A DNA stretch of 61,975 nt, filler included, from Sphacelaria rigidula (lineage: Eukaryota), in assembly GCA_964200075.2 (NCBI GenBank). It is 11 parts of 11 records of this genome, joined end to end, with 100 filler letters (N's around TTAATTAATTAA, not from the genome) between each part and the next. Parts side by side here need not be neighbours in the genome. Positions count along the whole stretch, not along the records: positions 45,147 to 50,689 come from CAXNAA020026479.1; 10 more parts are not named here. One strand, given 5' to 3'. Made by a program: the position numbers and the translations under genes. Under the pieces are notes generated by a model that worked only from the letters and a program-made list of their open reading frames with translations, had not been told where the DNA came from and searched no databases. Below are positions 5,545 to 57,715 of the stretch, one piece after another (positions within the stretch are counted from its first letter, which is position 1; every line of letters begins with the position of its first letter).

Positions 5545-5644
5545 NNNNNNNNNNNNNNNNNNNNNNNNNNNNNNNNNNNNNNNNNNNNTTAATTAATTAA
5601 NNNNNNNNNNNNNNNNNNNNNNNNNNNNNNNNNNNNNNNNNNNN

Positions 5645-7965
5645 CTGGTTTAGATTTTACTATTCAGTAGTCTCTCCGCTGTCTAGGCGTACGCATGTCC
5701 GCATGCCGTCATGGAATTGGCGGATGATGGAAATTACCTCGGCGGGTATACCGTAGCGTGCTAGAACTTTCCAGAGAAGAGCGCGGTGCACAGAGTCGTA
5801 CGCTTTTTGGAGGTCGATGAGGCACGTACACAGAGGAAGATTCTTTTCTCGGGCCAGTTCTTGGAGTCTGCGGACAACGAACATCATGTCGACTGTAGAA
5901 CGGCTAGGTCGGAAACCGCATTGCGCTTCTGGGAGGAATCCCTTCCACTCGCAGTAGGCACTGAGACGAATCGCAACTATCTTGAGCACCACCTTGCCTC
6001 AGTGGGACCCGAGAGAAATACCGCGGTTGTTGCCGCATTTGTACGGGTCCTGTTTCTTGAAGAGCACCTTGATGATAGTGTCTTTCCACTCTTGCGGTAC
6101 AACTTCCTGACGCCACACGGTGAGCACGATGTCGTGGAGGCACTTCAGGATGGCATAGTCTTCGGTGCGGCCGAGCTCTAACAGTTCGCCACAGATGCCG
6201 TCTATCCCAACGGCGTTACCGTTCGCCAGTTTGCTCACCGCTTGCTTCACTTCTGCCATCGAGGGCTCCGCCGCGAGTGGTGTGTGCTCTGGCAATTGTT
6301 CGATGAGATTGATGATGGAGTGATCGATTGTAGGTAGGTTGCGCTTAGCAGTGTGTCAAACTATTCCTCCCATCGTTGCAGGATAGCTTGCTTGTCTCGT
6401 GACAGCTCGCCAGTCGCGCTTCGGATGTAGGTTGAGTCGCTCTGCTTCTTCCCTTCCAGTTCCAAGGACTTGAGATGCTGGTAGAGTCCTGCTTGACCCT
6501 TCTTGCGAACAAAGTCAGCGATCCGCACTGTGAACTCGTGGACGAAGTTCTGCAGCTTAGCATCCTTCACCCGCTCAAACGCCTTGTACGTCACCTTCAG
6601 CGCCTTCTTCAGGACAGTGTCTTTAGGATTCACTCGTTGCATGTTTCATACACTTTCCCGGAGATCCCATGCCTTTAGGAGGCGGTCCTGAGCTTGGGAT
6701 GACTCACTGAAACCTCTAGATGGGGTTTTCTTGGGTCATCGACGGAGTGTATCCGCCGCAGTCTGTCACAGGGTGTTGGCGAAGGTAGATGCCATGTGGT
6801 TGACGTCCAGTACGGCGGGAGAATCAGCGGCATTCGGGAGCCTAACGACAATGACCTGTGCAACAGTTACTCTCCAGCTTCGGTCGGATGCAAGGGCTTG
6901 GCGGCCGAAACGCACTCCCCTATCCCCGCCTCTCGGTCGGGGTTAGCGGTTGGGGGCGTTCCGCCCAAGGAGACGGATGGCGGCAGAGACCAGACGATGG
7001 TCCGACTTCATCTTGGGGTGCACCGTGACGTTTCGGACAAGTCTGCGGTCTTGCTGACGTACGAGAATGTAGTCCAGGCGCCAGCGGTGTTCGACCTTCG
7101 GCCCCGCATATGTGTACGCGGTCGAGCTTTCCCCGCGAATTGGTATGCGAAAAAATGTGTTGGTGATGGTCATTGTATTTTCCGCGGCGCATTTCAGTAG
7201 GCGTCTACCATTATCGTTCCGGGTGTCTCTGCCATACTCTCCCAAACCCCGAGGATCATCCATGCCTCCTACTTCTCCTTTTCCGGTACGAGCATTGGCA
7301 TCCATCATTAGTACTAGGTGCTCGTTGGTGGGCACTTCAGCGATGGAACTACCGAGAGTTTTCCAGAACGTGGTCTTATCAGAACCTTGTGCTGTCTCAG
7401 TAGGAGCATACCCTATAATGAAGGTTGTGGCAACTCTATGCCGGAAAGCTACTCGTGCCTTCAGGACCCTGGCACCCACGTGCTCGGGAGTGATGGCATC
7501 TGGATCCAGTGTGTTGGCGAAAGACTCCTTGATGGCAAGGCCGACTCCGAGCATTCCCGGTTTCCCCCCGTCTCCATGGCAGTGGCCGCTGCAGTGAACT
7601 ATGTAGCCTGCTCCCGGTACGTGAAAGGTTGTTCGTCCATCGCGACGGGTTTCTTGAAGAGCGACAAAATCACAGCTGTACTTGGATACAAAAAGCAGTA
7701 GGTCCTCTGCGTGACGTGTGCCGTTGGAACCTCTCTTGGCCATGGTGCGTACATTCCACGTGGCCACAACCAGCTCTTTGGATCGAGCCTCCGCCCTTGC
7801 GGGAGTACGGTTGGCGTGAGCCTGAGCATTGTCGGCTCGCCGAGCTGGTCTTTCCCTCCTTCTCTTCCTTTGTTTTCCTCTGACCCTTTCTTTCTGGTGT
7901 CTGATCCAGCGTTTGTGTGCTACAATTCTCCGTTTCCACGCACTCTTCCGCCCACGCTGGTTCAT
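5645..7965 (-). mobile_element. RTE-clade LINE, single APE+RT ORF, decayed and cut by the contig end
   Basis: 6943-7965 has APE endonuclease motifs ATWNVRT, ALQETR, GYAPT, MDANAR and RLDYIL...SDH. 5660-6295 has RT motifs GIDGI, W....VPQEWKD.II..LFKK.D...C.N.RGISL, EAQCGFRPSRSTVDMMF..R.LQE and IDLQKAYDSV. The ORF is split by stops and frameshifts. Confidence 0.92.
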
Positions 7966-8589
7966 GCCTATCTGTTCCTGCGTGACGTTCAGCGGACCTC
8001 GCGCACGTCGACCTCCACCAAGTCGACCTTAATGCTTACACGCACGCCGCTGTCTGCTCTCAGAGCTACAGCAACAATGCTTTCGGCGGTGGCGATGAGT
8101 AATCGGATGAGCGGCCCCTTCCGGAAAGGGTAGGGCGTGTTCCGGTATCATCGCCATGTAGCAGCACGTTTACGGGTGGCAAACACCGTACGGTGCAGTC
8201 AGGGGCGCTGGCGCAAAGGGCATTCAAACCCACCCCACTGTGGTGCGTAGCAGTTAGATACTGTAGTAGGAGTTAATCTCCACACAAGCCGGGTGTTGTA
8301 CTCTTCCAGGGATCGCTGCTTTAGCCGGTGACGGCGGTTTGGGTCTACGACCGGGAAAGGCACCGACTGTATCACGGGTGATAACCACCGTATGGCTTGC
8401 ACGAGCCGGGGTACGTGGGATGAGAAGTAATCCAGCTGCCGCACGGGCGTGGTACAAATTAGATTGACCGTAGATATCACAGATACTCCGTACTAGTCGA
8501 ATTGCTGCGTCTTTCCTTGGGCCGCTGCCGCCAGCCAGCCGAACCCAGCCTCGGGGCTCGGGCCGAGGCTGGAGGGAAAGCAGGCGGAT

Positions 8590-10900: not shown

Positions 10901-11292
10901 CTCTTGATTGGCGCCACACCTAGTATCCGATGTACCCCGCCGGTCCACCTCCACACGGTGACTGACGAAGGTTTTTGCAAGGTGCGGCAGCGGTACGAAG
11001 ATTCCCACGAGCGGCTAACGGCTGCATTCCCCGGCAGTGAGCTACCACCGTCGCGCATTTTCCCTTCCACGTTCCACTTGCAACTGCGTTTCCTCTTGCT
11101 TCTTGTTTTCTTGTATACGCTCCACGGTTAGGACAAATCATCACGACTCAAAATCACCAAATTCACGATTTCTTCTGCTGATTGCCCGNNNNNNNNNNNN
11201 NNNNNNNNNNNNNNNNNNNNNNNNNNNNNNNNTTAATTAATTAANNNNNNNNNNNNNNNNNNNNNNNNNNNNNNNNNNNNNNNNNNNNGCTC

Positions 11293-27968: not shown

Positions 27969-28292
27969 CTTTTTGTTTTTTTCTCACACTTTGAACCTCT
28001 CCCCTTCCTCGGGATGAGTTCGTGGTCTCAAGGGATGAACCCATCTCTCCCCCGGTACGCGCTTTGCATTTTGGCTTCGCGGGTTGGGTCAGCACTCCCG
28101 GGCCGCGTCAACTCACGNNNNNNNNNNNNNNNNNNNNNNNNNNNNNNNNNNNNNNNNNNNNTTAATTAATTAANNNNNNNNNNNNNNNNNNNNNNNNNNN
28201 NNNNNNNNNNNNNNNNNGAAGGATGTCTGACACACTTATGAGCCTCTTTTTTCGTGCAACCAAATACCCCCCTCCCTATCGTAGGATGCCTT

Positions 28293-30716
28293 CCTCTACA
28301 ACCTCATGCATAAACGCCCCAACTGGAAAGTTGGTGATTGGGTTTGGATATACAACTGTTCGTCGACCATCCGCCAAGGCATCAGCAAGGCAGCCAACGG
28401 AACAAATTTTGAGGACAAAATTGTTTCTCAATTGGACAGGACCATTTAAGATCCTGACAGTCGGACCATCGCCATCATGACCGGATGATAAACCCGTTGG
28501 TGACAAACTGCTCTATCTCGACTTCCCTCGCGACTTCCAGGGCAAGGACACCAAACGGCGCGTCTCCGTGCACAGATGCAACCCCTGCACGAACCTGCAT
28601 GATATAAGTGACATGCCCAAGTACCTGCCTGCCGGACTCACGCGGTATGTTCTCAACAGCTACTCGACCAAGTCCCCGCCCTCCAATGTTACCACCGACG
28701 ACGTGACGGAACAGCCCCTCCGATTAACCGTGTCCATCATCTCCGGCCACCAGATAACCCGCGGTTCAGGTGGCAAAATTGCTGTGATGTACAAGACCCA
28801 CTGGCATGGTCTCCGGAGATCGTCCTGGAGAATCCGGCCTTCAATTGCACCGCCGTACAATCCTCCTGTACTAGACGAAATCTCAACATCAGCATCTTCC
28901 CCACAACAAGAAATATCGCGACATGCGTCGTGGCGCACCAGCCCGCGAACTTCACCGCGATCAGGGACTACGCTTCGTCGCCGATGGTTACGAACTTGTA
29001 CCTACCAAGACTTGTAAAACGAGGTTCGTTGCAAACCAGCGAATACTGCCCAAGGGCAGCTTGCCTTTGGTTCAAAGGCAGCGACAACCTCTGGTGGTTT
29101 GGCCAGATCCACTCCACTAACCTGGTTTCTGCCGACACATACATCGTGCGCTTCAGCAATGACCCTGGACCCATACAGCTCAAGCTTCGACCAGCACTAT
29201 ACACCACTGGCCCGTCCGCACCACGCGGATCCTGATGCCTCCAGCGCCTCGAGTCCGGAGGACTTCGCCGCGGTCTCCAGCGCAACATCGACCACACGCA
29301 CGACGTCCACGCACCGCTTTGAACCACGCTCCTTCGTTCCAACTTTCCCACCCCTTCTATTGTACTGTTTTCCATCCCTTCTTCTCGAGGACCCTACTCT
29401 ACGACATCCACAACAGGAGCACCTACATCGGACGACGATCGAGGAACTGCTGGAGCCAACCACCACCCACGGGTAATGGAGCTTTAGTATCCCCTATCGG
29501 CTGGCGCTCGATCTCGTTGAATCACCGATCTCCAGGTTATGCTTCCGGTCAAAATGCGTTGGTCGCATACTGATCTTGCAGTTTTTTTCTCTTCGGATTC
29601 CCCCAGGTTGAAACTCTGCTCTCTGTTGTATCTTTGGATTCCCTCAGCTTGAAGGTTTTCTCCCTGTTGTACCTCCCTGTTTCTCCCCTTCGTTTTGCTA
29701 GGACGCCGAAGCAATTTGTGCTTCTTCGTTGGTCGCTAGCACGCAGAATCAGTTTGTGCTTCCGCGTTTTGAAGCAGTTTTTCTGCTCCTCGAAGCAGTA
29801 TATGCTTCCCTTTTTTTGAGGTGTGGGAGTGGGTGCGGGAGTGTTGGGCACGGGAGTGTTTCCTTAGGTATGCTTTACTAGCCGCTCATGACTTCATGTG
29901 TAAGAAAAAACCTTAGTTTTTGCTGCTTTGAGGATAAGTCCTCGCAGCTGTAATGAAGGTTCGTCTGCGTGGGTTAGTGTCATGAGGACGCATATTAGGC
30001 TGTTATATGCCGCCTCAGACCCGTTGATGAGTCCGGCTTTATATTTGCATTTTCGGGTATTTCCAAGACTGCGGGTCTGTTCAGAGTTGGTCAGGTAAGA
30101 GTGTGAACTTGTATATGGTAGAGACGGTTACGGCTCGATTTGCCCTTGTGCAAATCGAGCCCCATCCATCCCACTACCAAGCGCGACCATCTGAACCCCG
30201 CTTTCAGCAAAGAAGCCTAACCCCGGTAAACCTGATTGACTGAGCGTGAGATTGGACTGATTGACTGGATACTGGAAGGTGGAAACCAAGCAATAAAGAA
30301 GAGATATAGAGCGATGCTACGGTAGGGGGGCACTTTTTCCGCGAAAATTTGTCTGGTCCAGGGGTTGCTAACGATTTTAGAAGCACGAGAATATGGATCA
30401 GGGCATCCCCGTTTGCAGATTAATTCGAGATATTCCCAGCACATTGGGATAGTAATCCTGGCGTACTCTCGCATATGCCATAAGTCGCGTTTTGGACGAG
30501 ATTAAGGGCTCCTAGCAATTCTAACCTCAGGAAATATTTGTGTACTCCTACCGTAGCATCACTTTATAGCCTACGCGTGAGATATTGGTACCTTTGGACA
30601 CGTCTTGTGTGAGGCGGTGCCTTGTTGTTAGCCTGGCCGTTCAGTCTGAGGGCTGACCCCCATGCCTTGCCCAGTGAGGCTATGCTTCCCATATATCGCA
30701 CCGTAACCTAATTACA
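28293..30716 (+). mobile_element. 3' part of a Gypsy element (same family as contig 9): integrase C-terminus, 3' UTR and 3' LTR 29978-30716
   Basis: Colinear with 48207-50431. NWTGPFKIL (GPF/Y motif). LTR ends TGTCATGAGG...CCTAATTACA. Confidence 0.88.
30309..30564. mobile_element. Sola-like MITE family A (256 bp) inserted in the Gypsy LTR, TSD TATA
   Basis: TIRs GAGCGATGCTACGGTAGG / CCTACCGTAGCATCACTT, with TATA at 30305-30308 and 30565-30568. The empty site GAGATATAGCCTAC is present in the sister LTR at about 50277-50290. Confidence 0.9.
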
Positions 30717-44605: not shown

Positions 44606-45187
44606 GTCCGTGGTGTCTTATTCCTCGCGTAGAATACGCCAGGAAAAGTTTGAGTTGTTAGGCCGTTTCTTCCGGTTCGTACTTTGTTTGGCTCGTATTT
44701 TCCACTTTTACGACATTTGACGAGGTTTTTGACCCTCAAACAGGGAAAATCGCCACCACACATCTTGGACACTTACTATCACCCCACCGAGACGAGCCTA
44801 GCCCACTTTTCCGATTCGCTTGGGTCAGAGATTTCGAGAGCGGCCTCTGGACGAAAATACGAGGAAAACATCCCTGAAATACCTACGGACTGTGTATTAG
44901 AGAGTTTCGGAAAAAAAGATGAGAACTCAGGGATAAGAGCGAGAACGACTGGATTGTTTACGCTTAAACCCCAGGTTTGTTTTTATTTATTTTTACCACG
45001 TAGGTGTGGACCGTGGCCAACTTTTCAGGGTTTAGTATTTTCTGTTNNNNNNNNNNNNNNNNNNNNNNNNNNNNNNNNNNNNNNNNNNNNTTAATTAATT
45101 AANNNNNNNNNNNNNNNNNNNNNNNNNNNNNNNNNNNNNNNNNNNNAAATGCCCCAAAACCCCCCCCCCCCTATCGTAGGATGACTC

Positions 45188-48100
45188 TTGGATGCGTATT
45201 TGGGAGCGGGACCAATACAACATTCCTCCTCTCCTTGCGCCTCGGCACTTGTGGTCGTCCCCCAAAAGTATGGAAATATACGCATAACCATGAATTATCA
45301 ATGGTTGAATCGCGTCACTGTGGTCGGCAATTTTTCGGTTCCCCGCATTAATGAAGTCTTCGACTCCTTAGGCGAAGGAAAAATATTCAGCACCTTCGAC
45401 CTCGCTCCTAGATTTTTTCAGAATGCTATATACCCTGACACAGTTCCACTGACGGCTTCTTGTACCTTGTCCGGACTCTACGTGGCTTCGAATGCCACAA
45501 GGCGCCGCCACTGCCCCGGGATGCTTTCAAGGCTAAATGAAATGCGTCACCGAGGGCCTCGAGTACATCATCATGTACCTGGATGACGCTATCGCTTTCG
45601 ATTCCTCACCTATTGCACATATCCGCACTCGACGAGAATTTCTCTCTCGCCTACGCACACACGATTTGAAACCGTCTCCATCCAAAACTTGCCTTGGTGC
45701 GACTGACTTGGATTCCTTGGGGCATTCCATTTCGCCAGCAGGACTACATCCGGATACAAAGTCAAGGTAATGGCTGACTTGCAGATGCCAACTGACATTT
45801 CTCAACTTCGGTCATTGTTCGGCGGACTACCCTACTACAGTAACTTTTTGCCGAATTTGTTTAAACGGATTCGCCCCTTACTATGTTACTCAAGAAAGGA
45901 GATGTGTTCACCTTCACAACCGATATGGAGAACATCACCCGCCAATTGCTCAAGACGCTCATCGAAAAGCCGATACTCTGCTTTCCTGATTGGGAGGCAG
46001 TACAAAATGGCTCTCGCCTTTTCCAACTCCACACTGACGCTAGCACAAACGGATTTGGAGGAATTTTGAATCAACCTCTGGTTGATGGCTCCGTCCGACA
46101 CATCCTCTACATCAGCCGCGCCACCCTGCCCAACGAGGCCAATTGGAGCCCGCTAGAACTGGAAGGCGGAGTAATCACCTGGGCCATTAACCGCCCTCGA
46201 CAATATCTGTTTCACGTGCCCTTTGATATGAATACGGATCATGGAGCACTCAAACAACTCGCCAAGGTTGGCAAACACAACCTGCGTGTACAAGGATGGT
46301 TGGAGTTCCTAACAGCAGACCAGTATACCATTGAGCACCGTCCAGGCAAAACTAATGGGGACGCTGATCTTCTTTCTCGACTACCCCTGCCGCCTACGGC
46401 CGCAGATTTCAGCCCGGCTTGCCCTTTAACTGAGCCCGATGAACCTGGAATTCACGCGATTAGACGTTCCTTAACGCCCGTTTACACCTTCGACCTCCTG
46501 TGCCCAGAAGCTGTAATGCATATGGGAGGGCCTCGCCCTCTACCATATGACGCCGTCTTGGGTGGGTTGGCGCCAATACCTCTGATTTCGTCGATTCCCG
46601 CACTTTCGTTACTCGCCCGAAGTTCTTCACGGACGCACCTTCGGTCACCCACCTAATCCCCGACAACACGCGCTCTCGGTCTGCCACCCGCACTAAACCC
46701 CCGAGTGCCAAGTCGCTACCGATAATACCTGCAAATTCCACGAGCCACGCAGCACCGGTCCCACGAACCAGCACGCAACGCTCCGCGAAAACTCCTGCGA
46801 CGTGCACCACGCGCCGCGGACAATCTCCGCCGCGCACTGATACAGCCCCGCCGCCTGTAACGGCGCCATCAACATCTACGGCTCCTGATCATGGAGCTGA
46901 CGACATAGCTCCTGCTCCCGGGACATATGTCGACGTCGGCATTTCTGCCGCGTCCTCAATTCCCCCGCCACCCACCCCACCATGTTTGGTCGGCTCTCCA
47001 GTGGAAGGTCAACTACGCGAGTTCCTCGTCAGCTACTCTCACGCGATTGGGCTCGCGAAGAAAACGCGGAAGCGCTATGTCGCGCAGCCATCCGGTACTT
47101 ACAAGTCGATTGTCCAGTCCCTTTTCCATCCGCCCTTCTGGCCCCGATCGACATACTGCCACCACCAATTGTTTCCGACATATACGAGCTCGTGCATAAC
47201 AACATCCTTTTTACTACGGATGAAGGTGTACAGCTACTGGTGCGTCGCCCCACGCCCTTGACAGGCGCAAATTCCGTCTCAACCTCGGGACGCCACGCAC
47301 GACTACTCGATGACGAACCAACACGCATATATGTCCCAATATTAATGCGCCCCCAGGTTATGAAAGATTGCCACACAGACTTGTCATGTCACCTTGGCGT
47401 CACCCGCACCCTAGCGCTCTTGGAACGCTTCTACTGGTGGGTTGGCATGAAAGAATCCACCCGCCTCTGGATTTGGCGATGCTTCAAATGCCAAGCCCGA
47501 AAGACTTCACGGCAGACAGTACGCTGGCCCGTCATCTCTATGGGACTACCCAACGAGCTAGGCCACCTTCTGCTCTCTGATTACTTTGGCCCTCTACCGA
47601 CCACAGGTTGCAGCAACACCTACATTTTACTCTTCACTGACCGCTTCAGCCGCCACGCGTCCGTGTACGCGGTAACCGCTGCAGATTTCACTGGCGCCGG
47701 AACGGCCGACATATTGGTCCATGACTAAATTAAGCACTACGGTTACCCGAAGCGACTCCTGTCAGACAAAGGTCAGCAAAATTGCCCAGATCTCTCTGAT
47801 GAGCTTTACAAGCTCCTGGGCATCCGCACAATTGCCACGAACGCCTACCACCCGAACGGTAACGGTTGTACCGAAAGAGTTAATCACACCATGGCCCAGA
47901 TGCTCTCAATGTTTGTCAATGACCGCCAAAATGACTGGTACCTACATCTCTCGAACATCATGTTGTCCTACAACAACTCGGTTAACGCCGCCACAGGCCT
48001 TCTTCCGAACGAACTCCATCTTGGACGTTACCCTCGGCTGCCCATCACCGTATTTGAGCCACACACGCTCGATGGCCACCAAGGATTGGATCAGGATCAG

Positions 48101-49231
48101 ATATCCTGCCACAAGCTAGCGCATTCACGACAACGCAAAGCGTTTGCCCTCGTGCGCGAACAACACGCTATCAACGCCTCGCGCCTGAAGATATCTAACA
48201 CTGCGCTCTACAATCTCATGCACAAACGCCCCAACTGGAAAGTTGATGATTGGGTTTCGATCTACAACAGGTTGTCGACCATCCGCCAAGGCACCAGCGA
48301 GGCAACCAACGAAACAATTTTGAAGACAAAATTGTCCCTTGTTGGACCGGACCATTCGAGACCCTGACAGTCGGACCATTGCCATCATCACCGGATGATA
48401 AACCCGTTGGTGACAAACTGCTCTATCTCGACCTGCCTCGCGACTTCCAGGGCAAGAACACCGAACCTCGCGTCTCCGTGCACAAATGCAAACCCTGCAC
48501 GAACCCATATGATACAAGCGACATGCCCAAGTACCTGCCTGCTGGACTCACACAGTATGTTCTCAACAGCTACTTGACCAAGTCCCCGCCCTACCATGTC
48601 ACCACCGACGACGAAGTGGAGCAGCCCCTCCGATTGACCGTGTCCACCATCTCCGGCCACCAGGTAACCCGTGGTCGAGGTGGCAAAATTACTGTCATGT
48701 ATGAGACCCACTGTCACGGTCTCCAGGAAGCGTCTTGGGGAACGCGAATCCGACCTTCAACTGCACCGCCGTGCAATCCTCCTGTACTGGACGCAATCTC
48801 AACATCAGTATCTTGCTCACAAAAAGAAATATCGCAACATGCGTCGGGGCGTAGCAGCCCGCGAACTTCACCGCGATCGGGGACTATGCTTCGTCGCCGA
48901 GGGTTACGAATATGTACCCACCAAGACTTGTAAGACGAAGTTCTTTGCAAACCAGCGATACAAGGGCAGCTACCTTTGGTTCAAAGGTAACGGCAACCTC
49001 TGGTGGTTTGGTCAGATCCACTCCGCTACTCTGGTTTCTACCGACACATACATCGTGGGCTTCATCGATGACCCTGGACCCATACAGCTCATGCTCCGGC
49101 CAGCACTATACACCACCATCCCATCTGCACCACGCGGATCCAGGTGCCTCCAGCGCCTCAGGTCCAAAGAACTTCGCCGCGGTCTCCAGCGCAAGATCGA
49201 CCACATCCACGACGTCCACGCGCCGCTTTGA
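45188..49231 (+). mobile_element. Decayed Ty3/Gypsy pol: RT, RNase H, integrase, chromodomain and C-terminal extension
   Basis: RT: SP.AS..VVV, FSTFDL, YLDD (45577-45588). RNase H: LHTDAS..GFGGIL, ELE, TDH, ADLLSR. Integrase: HHCC zinc motif, DYFGPLP, DRFSR, YNNSVN, WTGPF. Order RT-RH-IN is Gypsy. Many frameshifts. Confidence 0.95.
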
Positions 49232-49955
49232 ACCACGCTCCTTCGCTGCAGCTTTCCCCCCCTTTTATAGTACTGTTTACCATGCCTTCTTCACTACGAC
49301 CTTACTCTGCGACATCCACAACAGGATCACCTGCATCGGACAGCGATCAAAGAACTACTGGAGCCACCCACCACCTACGACCATGGGAGGTTTAGTATCC
49401 CCTTCCGGCTGGCGTTCGATCTCGTTGGATCACCGATTTCTAGATTTTGCTTCCGGTCAACATGCGTTGGTCGCATACTGATCTTGCCGTTTTTTCTCTT
49501 TGGTAGCTATGAGTACGCCCCCCCCCCCCCAAGGTTGAAGCTCTGCTCCCTGTTGCACCTTTGGGTTCCCTCTGGTCAAAGCTCTGCTCCCTGTTGTACT
49601 CCCTGCCGTTTTTTCTTTGGATTTCTCCAGGTTGAAGCTCTGCTCCCTGTTGTACCTCCCCATTTTCCCCCTTCGTTTTGCTAGGACGCCGGAGCAATTT
49701 GTGCTTCTTCGTTGATCGCTAGCACGCCGAAGCAGTTCGTGCTTCTGCGTTCCGAAGCAGCCTTTCTGCTCCCCGAAGCAGTACATGCTTCCCTTCCTTT
49801 GAGGTATGGGAGTGAATACAGGAGTGTTGGGTACGGGAGTGTTGGGTATGCTTTATTAGCCACTCATGACTTTGCGAGTGAAGAAAAACCTTAGTTTCCG
49901 CTACTTTGAGGATAAATCCTCGCAACTGTAATAAAGATTCGTCTGGGTGGGTTCG

Positions 49956-50431
49956 TGTCATGAGGACGCATATTAGCCTCTTATCATGCCGCCTCAGACC
50001 CGTTGATGAGTCCGGCTTTATATTTGCATTTCTGGTATTCTAAGACCTAGGACTGCAGGTCTGTTCAAATTTGGTCAGATACGACTGTGAATTTGTATAT
50101 GGCAGATATGATGATGGCTTGGGTGTGCCTTTGCGCAAGCCGAGCCAACCTCCTATTCACTGTCATCTGCACTCCTCTTTCAGCAAAGAAGTCTAACACC
50201 GGTGAGACTGATTGACAGAGCGTGAGATTGAATTGATTGATCGGATACTGGAAGGTCGAGGCCAAGCAACAAAGAAGAGATATAGCCTACCCGTGAATTT
50301 CTCATATTTCCCGGACACGTCTGTGTGAGATGGTGGCCATCATCCTGCTTGGCAGTTCAGTCTGAGGACTGGCCCCCTTGCCTTGCCTAGTGAGCCTGTG
50401 CTTGCTTATGCAGCACCGTAACCTCATTACA
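49956..50431 (+). mobile_element. 3' LTR (476 bp) of the contig-9 Gypsy element
   Basis: TGTCATGAGG...CCTCATTACA (9/10 inverted match). Homology with contig 6 stops exactly at ATTACA. TTTATATTT TATA-like motif near 50018. Confidence 0.8.
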
Positions 50432-52156
50432 AAAGGTTTTGAGGTTACCAAGTGAGCCACAGGGGGAAGTACCTACTGCAAACTAAAAACGTCCCGGTGT
50501 GCAACCTCTGACCACCTTGCCACGCACGGTTGTGTAAATACAGTGCAGTAAGAGCGAATGCGGTAATCGAAGTGTCAAATGGAACAGAAATCAACCCCAA
50601 ATAAATCTAGTACTAACAGAAAATTGTGAGAATTGAGGTTTAACTCTGAATTGAGGCTCAAGTGGGCAACCCAACTTGCGAACTGTTTGNNNNNNNNNNN
50701 NNNNNNNNNNNNNNNNNNNNNNNNNNNNNNNNNTTAATTAATTAANNNNNNNNNNNNNNNNNNNNNNNNNNNNNNNNNNNNNNNNNNNNTGCCCGTTCTT
50801 GCAGCGTGCTCACCGCTGCAGTCAGTGGCACGTGAAAGAGAAGCGCACAAAGTAGAGTACAGAGAGCGCAGGACTATATGTATGTTTTCCGCTCACAGTG
50901 CAACGTGAAAAGGACTTGAACAGTGTGCGCAGCTTTGTCTGCCTGCACTGTTCATGGGTGTGTACGCAGTGAACCGCCGGTTGTTGCTCGCACCATACCC
51001 CACTGCTCAAGTTCAAACTTCCACCAACAAGACAAACATCATGCTCAACTACTGCAGTGTGTATCTATATCCCTGTGCCCAATTCGTGCTCTTTGCTGCA
51101 GGGTTATCGTGGTGGTATTATAGCTGGGGGTAAGCGTTGTCGGGTTCGCAATTCAATCTGTGAAGGGCGGGTGATACATATTTTTTTTCTGGCGTGATGG
51201 TCCCAAAGGCCCCCTGGAAGCAGTTATAGGACACAAGTGCGTAAGTGCTGATGTACACGCTGGAGGATACTGTGCGGCTATGTCTTCCGGCGTCGCAACA
51301 AATGCCTTACAGGCCATATTCGGTCCCTCCGCCAGAGGAATGATGCACATATTTCCCTCTGCCATTCATATTTCCCTCTAAGGGATCTTCACGAAAACCA
51401 CGTGCTCCAGTGCACCATATTTTTGGTACTCTGGAGGTATTCAGACCTCAGAAGTCACTGAAGCATCAGATGTCCTCCAGAGGATTCGTTCCATGACCGG
51501 AACCGAGTATGAAATACCCTCTAGAGGATATTTTTATCCTCCCGAGGGTCACTTTACCCTCGAGAGGATGAAAATCGCGGTAGAGGATTTTAAGGGGGTA
51601 GCCGAATGGCCGCGTGTGATATCTATCGTCCCCCCGTGCTCCAGGGAAGGTCCACAACAAAAATTTCCATCATCCGCTGAATGTATTGTTCGGGGTTTCG
51701 TATAGATTTTAGCGTGGGCGCTATCTTCGTACGATATAGGAATTACTAGACATGGGGCTTATTCAACGAGGAAATGTTGACCCAGAGTTTTCAGCAGATG
51801 GGCACCTTCCCCTTGATTAGACGATTAATACGATGTGCGGATCACGGCCCTCGTCTGTGTCGATGAGATATTGCTTTGAGAGCTCAAAGCCGTTTTTAGC
51901 CTGGCCCAGCTCGTAGGGATATCCCGAATTAATTTGCAAACAGGGATGCCCTGACTTATATTCTTGTGCATCTAGAATCTTTAGGAGATCCTGAACTAGG
52001 CAAGATTTCGCGCAAAGTGCAACCCTGCTGTAGCGTCGCTCATTTTGGTCATGACAACTCCACGATACGAGTAATCGCACGGGCACCAATAATTATGTGC
52101 TTTTTGCTCTGCTCGTGGTCTATGCCGCCTGCCTGATCCCTCATGTGTTGCCGCGG

Positions 52157-53190: not shown

Positions 53191-55588
53191 CCCAAGAGAA
53201 TACACTGCATCGTGTACATGGTCCAAAGATGACCACTGTCGACGCACAAGAAGGTGCTCGCTGGTTGAGCGATCAGTTCGGACAATGTGTCTGCTGGGGC
53301 ACACCTACCTGAGGTATGTGACGTCAGCCAGAAGGAGAACTGGCGAATTTTCGTCACAGGTAGTGCATACCTCTGTACCGCTGTAATACACCGCAGTCCC
53401 CAGAGTGATCACCTGCAGAGCTTCAAGCTTGATCGGCTGCAGTGGTGCCGTGGTATTCGGCTAGCAGGGCAGGTCGTACTCCTCCAGAGAAGGGTGTTAA
53501 CAAGCCCGTCCTGTGGTCAACTCGTGTTATCAAACTGAGGGTTTTTTCTCTTTCAATCAACCAGCTGTTTGGGGAAATCACACAGCCCCAAGCAGAATAC
53601 AGGTAACAGTTGGGGATGAGGGTAAAAGTACGGCACAGCTTGAAGACTCACGTCAAGGCTGTGGCCTCGCGACCGTGGAGGCGGAGAGACCAAGGTGGTA
53701 GGTGATGGGTAAAAAGCTGTTCTATATCCAATAGGTGCCTGTAGGCTGGTCGGGGAGATCGAGTGACCTCGTGGGCGACGGTGGGTGCTGCTCGCTGCTA
53801 CCCTGCCTCGCATACAATCTTGTCATATAAATACAAATCAGCGTGACGCGCTGTACCTTTAGCCAATCAAAGCTGTAGTAACAGCAGGTACACGCGGCTA
53901 ATCGGGTGCAATCCTCATCCGACTCATGGGGCTGGATCAACGCTTCAGCAATGCAATTCTTATCATATACAAGCACATATTGGACTGAAATCTTGGTTTA
54001 TACCCGCCGGTCGTTTCCGGGGACCATCAGCAATTCCCAAGGAAGTGGTTTATTTCACGCACTCGGTCATTTACCATCACATTAGCCCACCCTGCATCGT
54101 TCAAGTGCGATTCCTTTTCAGAAGGGACGAACTTGCATCGAGCCATACCTCTCCCACACCACAGAAAACTGAGGCACCATTTGAAATTCGAGTCTTCGTT
54201 GGTACGGGGAACGGGAAGGGGCGATCAACACAAAAAATCAATAAAATACAAACACAAGCACAAAGCAAAGAAACAATCGCACCGATACAATACTTCAGTG
54301 TCCTCATGTTCCGTGAGCCTTTCAGACGGAGTCATAGGAGATAAAAAAAAAAAAATCCAAATTCAGCAATCAAAACCATGTACCACAAAAGGCAGTGTCT
54401 TCAGAATTCCGTAAGCATTTCCGGGATAGCCACAGGAAGTCAGAGACCTACCATTGAAACAATTATCCTACTCTGCCATAACTATGTCATGAATATCAAG
54501 GTTTACTCTTTTTCGGACGTCTAGACTCGAGGGTCAGGAACTCAGGAACGTTGGAACACTCATGGCGAAATTCCCGACATAGACGCAGAAACCAAAACCA
54601 AAATAAATACAAAACCGGGGGCACGCTGGGCAACAGCGAAAGCGAAATACCCGCAACATAAAGCAGAAAAACAACACGTGGCAACTGTCCTTGTAAACGG
54701 GAGCGCTTATCGTGTGTATGAAGCAAGCAGGGTAAAAAGTTGCAATCAAGAAGGTCAAAACATTTCAGGCCTTCGGCTTCGGCTACTATCGCCCATGTTA
54801 ATACAAAACTCAGCGTGGTACGCACACAAAAAGGGGACACGTCATTACCGATCCTGAAGGGGGCGGCGGTATGCGTGTACGGAGCGGTTAGGCAAGAGCG
54901 CAATTATTCCAGACGGGGAGGTCAGGTATATCCAGCGCTCGCTCCTAAAACTCTCGACCGAAAAGACAAAACAACAACAACATATTATACAAAAGACAAA
55001 AGATGCGTATAACGAAAGAAAAAAAGAAGAAGAAATAAATAACTTGTGGCAACTGTTCCAGTAGACGGGATGGTTGTGAATGTACGGCGCGGAGGACGGA
55101 GGTTCAAGGTTCCAGACTCGGGGTCAGGAATGGAACGGTCGTCACGTGTACTTTGCCAGATGAACCCAGAATTATCCAAGAAAAGTGCCCATTGAACACA
55201 AAAAATCAACCACAAAGCACGAAGCGAAAAGAGAAGAGAAGAGAAGTAGAAAAACAACAAAAAGAAACAAAGACAAAAACAAATCAAAACAAATGACACA
55301 TGGCAAACAAAACCGAAACACAAAATCAGGTCCAAAGCAACAAAAAACAAAACACAACACAAAAAAATACAAAATACAAAAACAAAAGACGAAATACCAA
55401 ATACAAAACACAACATCAAACACTACAAGTACGGGGCGAATCGATACGAAAAAAAATGTAGGCCGGGAGGGGGGGGGGACTCATGGTTTTCCAACGACCG
55501 CACGGTGCAAGACAAGCGACTCGAACGCGGTACACTACGCAAGGTGATTGGGGAAGCAGACTCGGATGCATCATGAGTCATCTGCATC

Positions 55589-56320
55589 CTAAGCGGTGTC
55601 CGTGTTCCGTAGAACGGCTGTTTCGAGTTCGCCATGGTCGTGTCGTTGGAGGCACCAGGATCCCCTCCGAGCGGTCGGCTCCTCGGTGTAGTAAGCATCA
55701 TCCAAGCGAATCTTAAGGGGGCTCGGGTCATCAAGGGAACAGATAAAGTAGGAGTGGTCAGACGCAGGATTGACCAAATGAATTTTTCCCAACCATCACA
55801 GTAAATCCAAGGCCTTATACCAAAAATACGCCCCTTTCGGCAAGCGCTCTCCGTGAAAACATTGCATGTATTGTTAACGCGAAAGAAGATAAGAGCCTGT
55901 CACAACAAACCGCGCTGAGTGTCCACGTGCCAGTTCCCGAGCGGCAGCTCCCTTGCGCATCGACCGATATCTCTTATTCAACGGGCGGTGTTGGACGGTA
56001 TCTCCTACCTAGTACAGCAGTATTTCCCGACAAAAGTAGCGTAAATCAACTTCACGCTCCAATGCAACACGCATGATACCCTTCCAACGTGTTTGATATA
56101 TTACCGCTATCTTACCTCCACGACCGCGAACCAGCTGATGACCCGAAATCCTATCTACCTCAACGCGTTCCAGGGGTGCGTCCGCATCCTCGACCGTCAT
56201 ATGATACGGCGGAGTTTTGATCGCATACTTGGTCAACACATGCTGGTTAAGCCCTACCGGCAGTTGTGTGGGCATGTCAGAGGAGCCATGAGGGGGGATG
56301 CACGGTTTGCATCGTAGCAT
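55589..56320 (-). mobile_element. Gypsy integrase C-terminal region (chromodomain plus extension) of a diverged subfamily
   Basis: One frame with three stops: RCKPC...VEVDRISGHQLVRGRGGKIAVIYQTRWKG...EREVDL...KGAYFWYK...L*WLGKI...LDDPSP...RGSWCLQ; homologous to 48480-49231. Confidence 0.88.
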
Positions 56321-57715
56321 GTTGTTGTTGTTNNNNNNNNNNNNNNNNNNNNNNNNNNNNNNNNNNNNNNNNNNNNTTAATTAATTAANNNNNNNNNNNN
56401 NNNNNNNNNNNNNNNNNNNNNNNNNNNNNNNNTGCTAAGATTGTTCGGCCCAAAGCCTACCGATTATCTTGAATTTTGATGACAACCTCCAACGGAGTTG
56501 CTTTATTGTCTGGTATCGCCAGAGAAAAAGGGGGTAGGGGAAGGGTGGGGGGCACCCAGCCTGCTGTCCCCTAGAATATTGCCGAGGCATTGGCGGATGC
56601 GGTCAGCTGCCGTGTACAGAGATCCTTGCTGACATGAAGACCGCTGAGATAACGGACACATCGCCCCGCCAAGCTCATCATGCACCATGATCACCTTCAT
56701 GGGATCATGTTCCGCGTGTCGTGTGCCTCGATTACCGACCACTAGTAGGCCGGGCGAATTTCGCGAGGCGTGAGATAATGTTGCTACTTTGGCTACAGGC
56801 TGCCGCTACCGTGCGTTCGTTTTTGTGCATAGCTGTGTGTGAGCGTTGCCGGCATCCGAGGTCATCGGGACATAGCGGGCAAGGAGCAGAAGAAGCAAAT
56901 ACACAAACCTCGCAAAGCCCGCCAGAATGTTCGGTTTTCCTCAGGGTTTGTTGATCAATTTCTTTCAACAATTTCAACAAAAAATCATTGAAAAAAACAC
57001 CAAGAAAGATGTCAAAATCGTGACAATTAAAAAAAAAAATGTCTTCCGGGAGGAGGCGCGGGGGGGGGCTCCGTGTAAAAAAAAATCTCTCAACAGACCC
57101 CTGGGCCGCGTTGTAATAATTTTTCGAACATGTCACCAAACGCGTCGTCGTACCATAATAATACACTCCACGCAAGTCCGACACACACTCATAACTGTGG
57201 TGCAAGACGTCATGATGATCTCTAACGGAATGGCAATGCAGCCAGGTGTAGTATATTGCCTGTGCGCTGTAGACTATGCGAATCGTCCACATCGTCTTCT
57301 TCCAGCTGAAGCTGGCAAGAGTGAGGAACTGCATCCAATGCAACGTCGTGTACCCGCCGAGCATTTGAATTTTGACGCAACGCAACCAAGGGAATGCGGA
57401 TACCATGGCGGCGTCTCAGGAAGGTCTTCTGATTGCGATGGCAAGCTTTTCTACTTCGTAAATGACCGACTGTGATGGGCATGGCAGTTGTGATGGATGT
57501 CTCACTTAGCTCGTTGAGGTGTATTGATTTTGGACTGGCTCCGGCCATGGTGGTGAAGGTCGCGCTCTTTTTCGTTCCCCTGTGAAAGAAAAGGCACAAC
57601 GGTTTTCAGAGTGAAGAGGTGCAGACGCGGGACTCAGACGACCGCGATGCGGGTAATCCATCTAGCTCACGCATGCTTTTTTCAAGTAAATATGGACGCC
57701 GAACCAGTACGTGAC

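Follow-up and report, generated by a model that had tools for sequence, protein, structure and literature searches.

A Gypsy-type Pol protein encoded in this window (the whole 61,975-nucleotide stretch of Sphacelaria rigidula DNA analysed here) ends in two consecutive modules behind its integrase, a chromodomain and a conserved extension of ~145 residues that is predicted to fold into a Tudor-type barrel, and this tail probably helps to decide where the element inserts. Three decayed copies of the Pol C-terminus (integrase, chromodomain, then extension) were found in the window (Table 1). The window consists of 11 separate pieces of ~5544 nt each, with spacers of the form N44-TTAATTAATTAA-N44 between them, and the piece boundaries cut every element: copy 1 at 45147, copy 2 at 28218 and copy 3 at 56332/56333.

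The two protein strings that the earlier note had quoted from the extension, KGSYLWFKGNGNLWWFGQI (48962-49018) and TYIVGFIDDPGP (49046-49081), were both recovered in copy 1, in the translation of 48668-49231. The motif GPFETL and the chromodomain segment ISGHQ...VMYETH...EASW (48649-48738) lie in the upstream frame, 48250-48933, and ERESDL begins at 48740 in the next frame, so that the chromodomain of copy 1 is split by a one-base frame change at ~48738/48739. With the 187-aa translation of copy 1 as query and the window as target, tblastn returned copy 2 at 28758-29319 (E 6e-73; identical residues in 71% of 103 columns and in 78% of 89), which carries stops and a frame change, and, on the minus strand, copy 3 at 56059-55604 (E 5.7e-27; 40% of 152 residues identical), in which chromodomain and extension share a single frame broken by three in-frame stops; no further copy was found within the window, where all remaining tblastn matches had E >= 1.9. 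The earlier note had already placed the same module in these two additional copies and had described the one in copy 3 as lying in one frame, and both observations stand, the latter with the three stops added. At the nucleotide level (blastn), copies 1 and 2 match over 48206-50285 and 28294-30309 (82.1% identical in 2106 columns) and again over 50281-50431 and 30565-30716. All three window copies are dead pseudogenes, and the five internal stops that copies 2 and 3 carry within chromodomain and extension all fall at consensus Trp positions. G-to-A hypermutation was considered and dropped: the 278 differences between copies 1 and 2 include 94 G/A and 101 C/T transitions, a symmetry that points to ordinary transition-biased decay. 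A megablast of the element against a phage collection, a poorly suited target, gave no match.

Table 1 Features of the three element copies, in window coordinates
Feature	Position	Strand	Remarks
RT fragment and RNase H, copy 1	45185..46656	+	Pfam RT_RNaseH E 9.7e-21 on 45865-46656
RT-like ORFs, copy 1	45185-45586, 45537-45770	+	5' part of element lost at boundary 45147
Integrase, copy 1	46901..48367	+	H2C2 zinc finger, catalytic core, C-terminal region to GPF motif (GPFETL, 48349-48366)
H2C2 zinc finger, copy 1	~47333-47509	+	Pfam Integrase_H2C2 E 4.9e-15
Integrase lesions, copy 1	TAA in frame 47726-47728; frame change between ~48298 and 48349	+	
CKPC motif, copy 1	48487..48498	+	linker between integrase C-terminal region and chromodomain
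Chromodomain, copy 1	48625..48790	+	PLRLTV...ILLYW; frame change inside; W45-equivalent mutated to C
C-terminal extension, copy 1	48791..49228	+	146 aa; pol stop 49229-49231
Basic helix of extension, copy 1	48800-48877	+	predicted, AlphaFold model m22c9f99e8dd0
Short strand and helix of extension, copy 1	48905-48952	+	predicted, same model
Five-stranded Tudor-like barrel, copy 1	48971-49159	+	predicted, same model
Short helix after barrel, copy 1	49163-49195	+	predicted, same model
Non-coding 3' part, common to copies 1 and 2	49232..50285	+	probably 3' LTR region (blastn)
Copy 2, same subfamily as copy 1	28283..29319	+	integrase C-terminal region, chromodomain, extension
Lesions, copy 2	in-frame stops 28872, 29233	+	frame changes; terminal stop 29320-29322
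Copy 3, diverged subfamily	55604..56332	-	linker, chromodomain, extension; one frame
Stops, copy 3	in-frame 56009-56011, 55874-55876, 55796-55798	-	likely terminal stop 55589-55591

The Pfam matches of the window follow the Ty3/gypsy order, RT_RNaseH and then Integrase_H2C2 (E-values in Table 1), and relatives show RVT_1, RT_RNaseH, Integrase_H2C2 and rve in this order. Intact relatives also carry an N-terminal NADAR domain of the YbiA type (P0153, E 1.9e-45; among the 17 full-length Pols, 5 have PF08719 in their lists); the window copies are cut at or after RT by the piece boundaries.

The extension is a real domain under purifying selection. A phmmer search with the translation of 48740-49228 against 1.84 billion representatives returned 213 relatives at E<=1e-3, of which 69 reach E<=1e-10; longer proteins, sought in a word index with the translated window sequence as query, gave no match at E<=1e-3. 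Across ~100 sequences, the core columns W63, W71, W72, G74, R90, F91, D93, D94, P95, G96, P97, L102 and C119 are 75-88% conserved. The module is matched by 17 full-length Pol proteins of 904-2422 aa (E 2e-50 to 2e-97), and 18 of 19 full-length relatives carry the linker motif RCKPC. In intact relatives the extension runs to the pol stop, the position of which is shared: locus L002 encodes RT, RNase H, integrase, chromodomain and extension in an uninterrupted 1636-aa ORF closed by a stop, and L001 the same domains plus NADAR (E 1.9e-45) in a 2386-aa open frame. Among L001, L002 and L003, dN/dS of the extension is 0.10-0.21 (pN 0.23-0.28 against pS 0.67-0.73, with synonymous sites saturated); L004, near-identical to L003 and carrying an in-frame stop, and L005, which has frame changes, were left out. 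The stops and frame changes of the three window copies, together with the lack of a Pfam match for the extension, would suit a non-functional sequence, whether a tail made by read-through, a frame overlapping another or a similarity that decayed copies share by chance. This reading is scarcely credible, being contradicted by the 213 relatives, by the intact long ORFs that cross the extension to a common stop position, by the dN/dS values (synonymous sites saturated), and by two confident AlphaFold models with the same topology. The earlier note's view of the extension as conserved is borne out, the two checks that it had proposed, on the pol frame of intact copies and on dN/dS, came out in favour of a domain, and the brown-algal setting that it had considered agrees with the labels of two relatives, one Ectocarpus sp. 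and one Undpi1.

The segment after the GPF motif, which the earlier note had called chromodomain-like, is in the AlphaFold model of the relative P0003 (pLDDT above 90 for 154 residues) a canonical chromodomain fold, with a three-stranded antiparallel sheet on a C-terminal helix. Residues 73-130 of this model match Chp1 (3g7l_A; Z 7.0, rmsd 1.5 Å, 53 of 55 residues), CDY1 (6v41; Z 7.0, rmsd 1.7 Å, 55 of 61) and HP1 (6mha; Z 6.7, rmsd 1.5 Å, 51 of 53), and overall the matches to these three proteins have Z 6.6-7.0 at 1.5-1.7 Å over 51-56 residues, below Z 8 yet covering the whole targets. All 23 PDB sequence matches of P0055 are chromodomain proteins, weak but consistent (E 0.037-1.4). Pfam Chromo (PF00385) stays below threshold throughout (best P0008, 17.1 bits against a cut-off of 25.1), reaches E<=0.1 in only 2 of 103 members and is found in none of the precomputed lists of the 17 full-length Pols. 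The cage register was taken from a HMMER alignment to CDYL and MPP8, with the cage residues Y24, W45 and Y48 as given in the text of PMC3350952. One of the three positions is retained: in 18 of 18 relatives W45 is kept, with L, I or C at the first position and L or I at the third, and the P0055 fragment has F at the third. According to the same text, a W45-only pattern is that of plant group II and shadow chromodomains. In MAGGY-type (group I) chromodomains, which bind H3K9me2/3, the full set of Y24, W45 and Y48 is present (PMC3350952), unlike in the chromodomain of the window lineage, which keeps W45 only.

For the extension, the models support a basic arginine-rich helix followed by a five-stranded SH3-like barrel of the Tudor type, a likeness of fold from which homology to Tudor domains is unproven. 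The five strands come in the same order in two independent models, that of P0003 and that of the copy 1 extension (m22c9f99e8dd0, mean pLDDT 84.7). The barrel matches the RDM15 Tudor (Z 6.8, rmsd 2.0 Å, 56 of 58), Spindlin-4 (Z 6.5), the Esa1 knotted Tudor (Z 6.2), TDRD3 (Z 5.6-5.7), PHF19 (Z 5.4, 56 of 57) and SMN (Z 5.2), all of these Z scores lying below 8, a range that can reflect merely a common arrangement. Tudor, chromo-barrel, Agenet, SAWADEE or PWWP entries make up about 30 of the 50 structural matches listed; the top match is a TraI SH3-like domain, and several KOW domains are among the matches listed. With Foldseek, the PHF1/PHF19 Tudor is matched at probability 1.00, 27-32% identity and rmsd 1.8-2.8 Å, the E-values of the structural matches being 0.003-0.3 with none <= 0.001, and nothing was found at E<=0.001 among the BFVD viral models. 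At the sequence level, the family profile run against all PDB sequences retrieved the PHF19/PHF1 Tudor only (12 of 12 matches at E<=10, best 0.0011), and a profile including the chromodomain columns retrieved PHF1/PHF19 Tudor or chromodomains in 16 of 16 cases. Judging by their entry titles, some of the matched PHF19/PHF1 structures were solved with H3K36me3. These Tudor domains (PDB 4hcz, 4bd3, 6wau and others) superpose on the barrel at a Foldseek rmsd of ~1.9 Å over 43-51 columns but lack the family's N-terminal helix and its conserved GSWCLQxH strand, and the profile E-value is too marginal to establish common descent. PTM_DIR17_Tudor is the label of the nearest named clusters in the ESM Atlas (scores 0.75-0.76, a lead only).

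The Royal-family SH3-like barrel foreseen by the earlier note therefore did appear in the structure search, as a predicted Tudor type, but its other expectations fared less well. The HMMER comparison with Pfam brought no model to threshold on 103 members, with SH3_VIII-1_N (12 members), Agenet (7, best E 0.0018) and Chromo (2) seen below it. PWWP, which the note had named beside Tudor, was rejected as the best label: none of the 103 members has a PWWP Pfam match at E<=0.1, and PWWP structures do occur among the matches but rank below Tudor (6kco Z 5.7, again under 8; 2nas E 0.21; the DNMT3A/3B complex 9y4p E 0.28). The motif at the start of strand 2 is (D)GLWWLGK, without PWWP-type flanking prolines, and the barrel is followed by one short helix, where a PWWP domain calls for a helical bundle. 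The aromatic cage of the barrel appears partial by alignment. In the HMMER alignment, PHF19 Y56, F74 and D76, which we take to be two cage aromatics and the cage aspartate, pair with W72 (84% W), F91 (78% F) and D93 (80% D), and opposite the two remaining cage aromatics of PHF19 stand A/G/S and P, so that 2 of 4 cage aromatics are present by alignment. The further conserved aromatics W63, Y64, W71, Y87, Y107 and W118 could act as substitutes. Since the cages of both modules are incomplete by sequence, we can only infer that a mark is read.

The two non-aromatic cage positions also fit a reading that we regard as possible, if rather unlikely, in which the barrel would be a nucleic-acid-binding or integrase-assembly module resembling the SH3-fold C-terminal domain of retroviral integrases, and would stabilise the intasome or bind target DNA while reading no histone mark. 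Barrels associated with DNA or RNA score in the same Z range as the Tudor domains (TraI Z 7.0, Spt5 KOW Z 5.0-5.4, a PWWP with ssDNA Z 5.7), and the helix and barrel hold the conserved basic residues R18, R24, R28, K65, K75, R90 and K99. MMTV and RSV integrase chains do occur in weak Foldseek rows of the two-domain model (probability 0.21-0.28), but an integrase C-terminal region with its GPF/GPY motif is already present upstream in these Pols. Moreover, the columns of the cage-type W, F and D rank with the best conserved, and at the sequence level no relatives of solved structure are seen other than the PHF19/PHF1 Tudor domains, of which some were solved with H3K36me3; both points argue against this reading.

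Two proteins other than Pol, P0047 and P0070, also end in the barrel and have no chromodomain. No match to the window or to any Pol was seen for the N-terminal parts of P0047, P0070 and P0087, and that of P0070 used as query matched only itself. This distribution fits a portable interaction module, and by analogy the extension might tether the integrase not to a histone tail but to a host protein, e.g. one that bears methyl-arginine or another factor associated with chromatin. The integrases of Ty1, Ty5 and HIV use host partners. Alignments of 72-84 residues, N-terminal helix included, are obtained with the extended-Tudor domains of Papi, TDRD1, Tudor-SN and Drosophila Tudor, but their Z scores of 4.9-5.4 are low and do not exceed those of plain Tudor matches, and a host-protein tether appears quite improbable to us.

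The reading that we favour, and hold to be moderately probable, is that the chromodomain and the Tudor-like barrel act in tandem on the integrase as a two-part chromatin tether. Such a tail would anchor the integration complex to a given chromatin state or nucleosome surface, and would thereby bias the insertion sites of new copies, the barrel possibly giving the specificity that is missing from the cage-poor chromodomain. Candidate ligands would be the methyl-lysine marks present in brown algae, H3K36me3, H4K20me or H3K79me2. In the text of PMC13076208, H3K27 methylation is missing in each of the five brown algae examined, H3K9 methylation is detected in only some, and expressed gene bodies are covered by H3K36me3. 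A bolder version, which we think unlikely as a whole, is that in a host without H3K27 methylation and largely without H3K9 methylation the lineage let its chromodomain cage decay, and that a PHF1-like Tudor barrel would read a remaining mark (gene-body H3K36me3, or H4K20me/H3K79me2 in silent DNA) as a LEDGF/p75-style tether built into the integrase; the barrel, passed also to P0047 and P0070, would then be a mobile targeting cassette.

Fusions of chromatin readers to Gypsy elements of brown algae, including a C-terminal Tudor, have already been published for Ectocarpus (PMC12477816, 2025), which makes the find less unprecedented than the earlier note held. As described there, Ectocarpus has a NADAR-bearing Gypsy lineage with a 'putative C-terminal chromodomain', e.g. 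Gypsy-12_Ec32. Intact relatives of our module likewise combine NADAR with RT, RNase H, integrase and a chromodomain at the C-terminus, one relative being labelled Ectocarpus, and judged by this architecture they probably are that lineage; however, its text description gives a C-terminal chromodomain only and does not mention a Tudor-like module of ~145 aa. The second published case, Gypsy-10_Ec32, was reported as the first transposable element with a Tudor domain (PMC12477816) and similarly places a Tudor-type barrel at the C-terminus of a brown-algal LTR-retrotransposon Pol. It belongs to a separate lineage, in which the Tudor replaces the chromodomain and is recognised by CDD cd20401, whereas the barrel of the extension, compared here with that published description, stands behind a chromodomain and passes no curated model. 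The same source places the Ectocarpus chromodomain Gypsy lineages outside the chromovirus and Chronos clades.

Integrase-chromodomain fusions of the chromovirus type are otherwise described for MAGGY and others, for Chronos of oomycetes and for the CoDi-I Copia elements of diatoms (PMC3350952, PMC5348765, PMC11541908). In these, too, a chromodomain is fused behind the integrase and is thought to steer integration to a chromatin state, but each is described with one reader module, whereas the window lineage has a second barrel. Two small reader-type barrels in one polypeptide are seen in Spindlin, the UHRF1 tandem Tudor, the SHH1 SAWADEE and the CHD1 double chromodomain, all of which are among the structural matches of the two-domain model, though per domain only and with a large whole-model rmsd. 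These cellular tandem readers are Tudor-Tudor or chromo-chromo pairs in host regulators, in contrast to the integrase of a transposon that carries a chromodomain and, behind it, a Tudor-like barrel. Our literature search found no printed description of this tandem form on a Gypsy integrase in the texts consulted, in line with the earlier note; chromodomain and Tudor Gypsy lineages have been published separately (PMC12477816).

Integrase-fused readers are the clearest natural cases of transposons picking their landing sites by chromatin state, and a tail with two readers would be an instance of combinatorial or replacement targeting. As the hosts lack classical heterochromatin marks, the ligand would reveal a safe-haven or gene-body chromatin feature in brown algae. 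Domain-based surveys miss the extension because no curated model detects it, and the 17 full-length Pols have neither Chromo nor Tudor entries in their precomputed Pfam lists; with a family model drawn from the 213 relatives, the module could be annotated. Among ten other long ORFs of the window, the sole Pfam match is a LINE-type endonuclease.

A two-barrel integrase tail, in which a chromodomain is followed by an extension of ~145 residues, is conserved and under selection. When window positions 48740-49228 were searched by HMMER against 1.84 billion representative proteins, 213 relatives had E<=1e-3, 69 of them E<=1e-10; most of the 213 are short gene-model fragments, and in several (P0003, P0008 and P0018) a single protein joins the integrase C-terminal region to chromodomain and extension. 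A metagenome-contig scan yielded five loci with the same module (L001-L005). L002 has an unbroken 1636-codon ORF in the order RT, RNase H, integrase, chromodomain and extension, which stops six codons past the conserved RNxDxSRG end, and L001 has a 2386-codon open frame with an additional NADAR domain at its start. In both intact copies the extension lies inside the pol frame. In a word-index search, 17 Pol proteins of 904-2422 aa matched the L002 tail (E 2e-50 to 2e-97), one labelled Ectocarpus sp. and one with an Undpi1 identifier; precomputed Pfam lists show NADAR in five of them and a Chromo or Tudor entry in none. dN/dS was computed from L001, L002 and L003, which are intact and independent of one another, leaving out the L004 rows and L005. 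Because only 23-28% of non-synonymous sites in the extension differ while synonymous sites are saturated (pS 0.67-0.85), dN/dS is 0.10-0.21 where computable. The columns conserved among ~100 sequences read G-A-x-F-W-Y-K-x-x-D-G-L-W-W-L-G-K-I ... Y-x-V-R-F-L-D-D-P-G-P ... Y ... G-S-W-C-L-Q-x-H.

Within the window, re-translation reproduced every string and coordinate quoted in the earlier note, and the chromodomain and extension it had observed behind the integrase are present in three copies, as in intact relatives. The window is made of 11 pieces of ~5544 nt each with spacers N44-TTAATTAATTAA-N44 between them; since it is concatenated, elements are cut and neighbourhood cannot be assumed across joints. 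Copy 1 is a dead element, interrupted by an in-frame TAA (47726-47728), shifted in frame near 48298-48349 and carrying a compensating one-base change at ~48738 that divides the chromodomain. tblastn with the extension found two further copies, no other match in the window being better than E 1.9. Chromodomain and extension of copy 3 share a single frame, which three internal stops interrupt. In copies 2 and 3, the five internal stops within chromodomain and extension all fall at family Trp positions. As 70% of the differences between copies 1 and 2 are transitions, distributed strand-symmetrically, this looks like ordinary transition-biased decay, and editing as the source of the stops is disfavoured.

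Features of the window and of the metagenome-contig loci L001 and L002
Feature	Position	Strand	Remarks
Spacers	5545-5644, 11189-11288, onward every 5643 nt		
Copy 2	28758-29319		tblastn; 71-78% identity to copy 1; stops and frame change
Internal stops, copy 2	28872, 29233		
Piece 9	45147-50689	+	3' two-thirds of a Ty3/gypsy element
RT fragments, then RNase H	piece 9, copy 1	+	Pfam RT_RNaseH E 9.7e-21
Integrase with H2C2 zinc finger	piece 9, copy 1	+	E 4.9e-15
Integrase C-terminal region, last motif GPFETL	48349-48366 (GPFETL)	+	
CKPC motif in linker (RCKPC, CxxC)	48487-48498	+	between integrase C-terminal region and chromodomain; in 18/19 full-length relatives
Chromodomain-like segment, copy 1	48625-48790	+	
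Extension, copy 1	48791-49228	+	146 residues; stop codon 49229-49231
WCLQxH (C-x3-H), last barrel strand	49142-49156		in 17/19 full-length relatives
Copy 3	56059-55604	-	tblastn; diverged; 40% identity over 152 residues, E 5.7e-27
Internal stops, copy 3	56009-56011, 55874-55876, 55796-55798	-	
NADAR, YbiA-type	L001 973-1422		= residues 262-411 of relative P0153; E 1.9e-45
NADAR-side ORF	L002 1382-2998		same-frame stops between NADAR and RT ORF

AlphaFold2 models of P0003 (273 aa, 104-sequence alignment, pLDDT >90 for 154 residues) and of the window extension (103-sequence alignment, mean pLDDT 84.7) share one predicted topology: behind a three-stranded chromodomain with its helix come a long helix and a short strand-helix pair, then five strands, followed by another short helix. 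The chromodomain part matches the chromodomains of Chp1, CDY1, HP1 and MPP8 (Z 6.6-7.0, rmsd 1.5-1.7 A, 51-56 of 53-61 target residues), and the PDB sequence matches of the relative P0055, weak at E 0.037-1.4, are chromodomain proteins in 23 cases out of 23. For the extension, the search against structure representatives returned no match with Z >=8. Its best rows were the TraI SH3-like domain (Z 7.0) and the RDM15 Tudor domain (Z 6.8, rmsd 2.0 A, 56/58), then Spindlin-4 (Z 6.5) and the Esa1 knotted Tudor (Z 6.2), with PWWP, TDRD3, PHF20L1, BAHCC1, PHF19, SAWADEE, Agenet, SMN and extended-Tudor entries lower down. Judged by titles, ~30 of the 50 matches listed are Royal-family entries, the remainder being small barrels, KOW domains among them. 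As less likely alternatives to the chromatin tether considered below, the barrel might act in DNA binding or intasome assembly, as suggested by a basic helix, conserved R and K residues and the matches to KOW domains and TraI, or might tether the integrase to a host protein, as suggested by the extended-Tudor matches.

Foldseek aligned the P0003 model with the PHF1/PHF19 Tudor domains (probability 1.00, 27-32% identity, rmsd 1.8-2.8 A, E only 0.01-0.04) and the window-copy model with the same domains at 18% identity (E 0.13-0.25). When the family profile was run against all PDB sequences, its 12 matches at E<=10 were all PHF19/PHF1 Tudor domains (best 0.0011), and with chromodomain columns added all 16 were PHF1/PHF19 Tudor domains or chromodomains. 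Of 103 members, none scored above threshold with any Pfam model; sub-threshold votes went to SH3_VIII-1_N (12), Agenet (7) and Chromo (2). The closest named ESM Atlas clusters carry a Tudor family (scores 0.75-0.76), a lead only. Together, two converging lines, each weak in itself, give good support to a predicted SH3-like barrel of Tudor type, and Polycomb-like Tudor domains are plausible, if marginal, homologues. The proposal of a second PWWP/Tudor-like module is supported in its Tudor half, but PWWP is not the best label: it received none of the Pfam votes, and the profile matched only PHF19/PHF1 Tudor domains.

We then considered the residues that might read a mark. The chromodomain cage consists of Y24, W45 and Y48, of which W45 alone is kept in plant group II and shadow chromodomains (extracts of PMC3350952). 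With the register taken from the alignment of P0055 to PDB chromodomain proteins, each of 18 full-length relatives has W at the W45 position, with L, I or C at the first cage position and L or I at the third; in copy 1 the W45-equivalent itself is mutated to C. In the barrel, HMMER alignment to PHF19 places family residues W72 and F91 on two aromatics and D93 on an acid that we take to form the PHF19 cage, and the remaining two cage positions are A/G/S and P. Further conserved barrel aromatics are W63, Y64, W71, Y87, Y107 and W118. Of the barrel with an aromatic cage that had been expected, the barrel is predicted in both models, but the cage appears incomplete, two positions being non-aromatic. 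The CxxC and C-x3-H motifs could together supply four zinc ligands; AlphaFold pLDDT is <50 over the CxxC region.

By analogy with chromodomain-bearing elements such as MAGGY, whose H3K9me2/3-binding chromodomain is proposed to steer integration to heterochromatin (extracts of PMC3350952 and PMC11541908), the two-barrel tail would tether the integration complex to chromatin and bias insertion sites. In brown algae, all five species analysed lacked H3K27 methylation and H3K9 methylation was seen in some species only; expressed gene bodies are covered by H3K36me3, and repression is associated with H3K79me2 and H4K20me3 (extracts of PMC13076208). One may speculate that specificity shifted to the second module, the barrel taking over from a chromodomain minus two cage residues; this would fit the loss of those residues and the presence, among the barrel's nearest relatives, of structures solved with H3K36me3 (entry titles). 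The earlier reading of a tandem reader for integration targeting is in this way partly supported. With two reader-type modules of putative function, and with hosts whose chromatin is unusual, this integrase makes a clean, testable case.

Four Gypsy lineages are described in Ectocarpus, three with "putative C-terminal chromodomains", one of these also with an N-terminal NADAR (example Gypsy-12_Ec32), while the Gypsy-10_Ec32 lineage has a C-terminal Tudor domain and is termed the first TE with one (extracts of PMC12477816). The relatives of the window module fit the description of the Gypsy-12_Ec32 lineage, but the extracts of running text on it, considered apart from the domain figure, do not mention a barrel behind the chromodomain. 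Extracts of brown-algal centromere papers mention the chromodomain alone (PMC11541908, bioRxiv 10.64898/2025.12.07.692804), and those of a chromatin-evolution preprint report that TEs captured Chromo and PHD and that reader genes contain just one reader domain in 92% of cases. Full-text literature searches, covering text rather than figures, found no description of the chromodomain and Tudor-like barrel in tandem. The architecture, unfamiliar to the earlier note, thus appears undescribed in its tandem form, but is not categorically new, integrase-fused chromatin-reader tails being known (PMC12477816, in part). The tandem tail probably belongs to a brown-algal lineage that has been catalogued before, but in which this feature has gone unannotated.

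The Tudor-like barrel also terminates non-Pol proteins: P0047 (828 aa), P0070 (612 aa), P0087 (626 aa) and P0014 (373 aa). P0047 and P0070 are 29% identical over ~600 residues, contain coiled-coil-like and Ser/Arg-rich regions and have the barrel without a chromodomain, and P0087 has an unrelated N-terminus followed by chromodomain and barrel. In P0014, WSC and TIMP domains are joined to the barrel, and this may be a chimeric gene model. The N-termini of these proteins have no match in the window, loci or Pols.

Elsewhere in the window, a Lys/Asn/Thr-rich low-complexity stretch with long open frames on both strands lies just downstream of the copy-3 stop (55164-55547). Nine open frames, each 170 codons or longer, have no Pfam match at E<=0.001, and a further one of 361 codons (6946-8028, minus strand) matches the Exo_endo_phos endonuclease family (E 2.9e-13) and is probably a LINE-type element.
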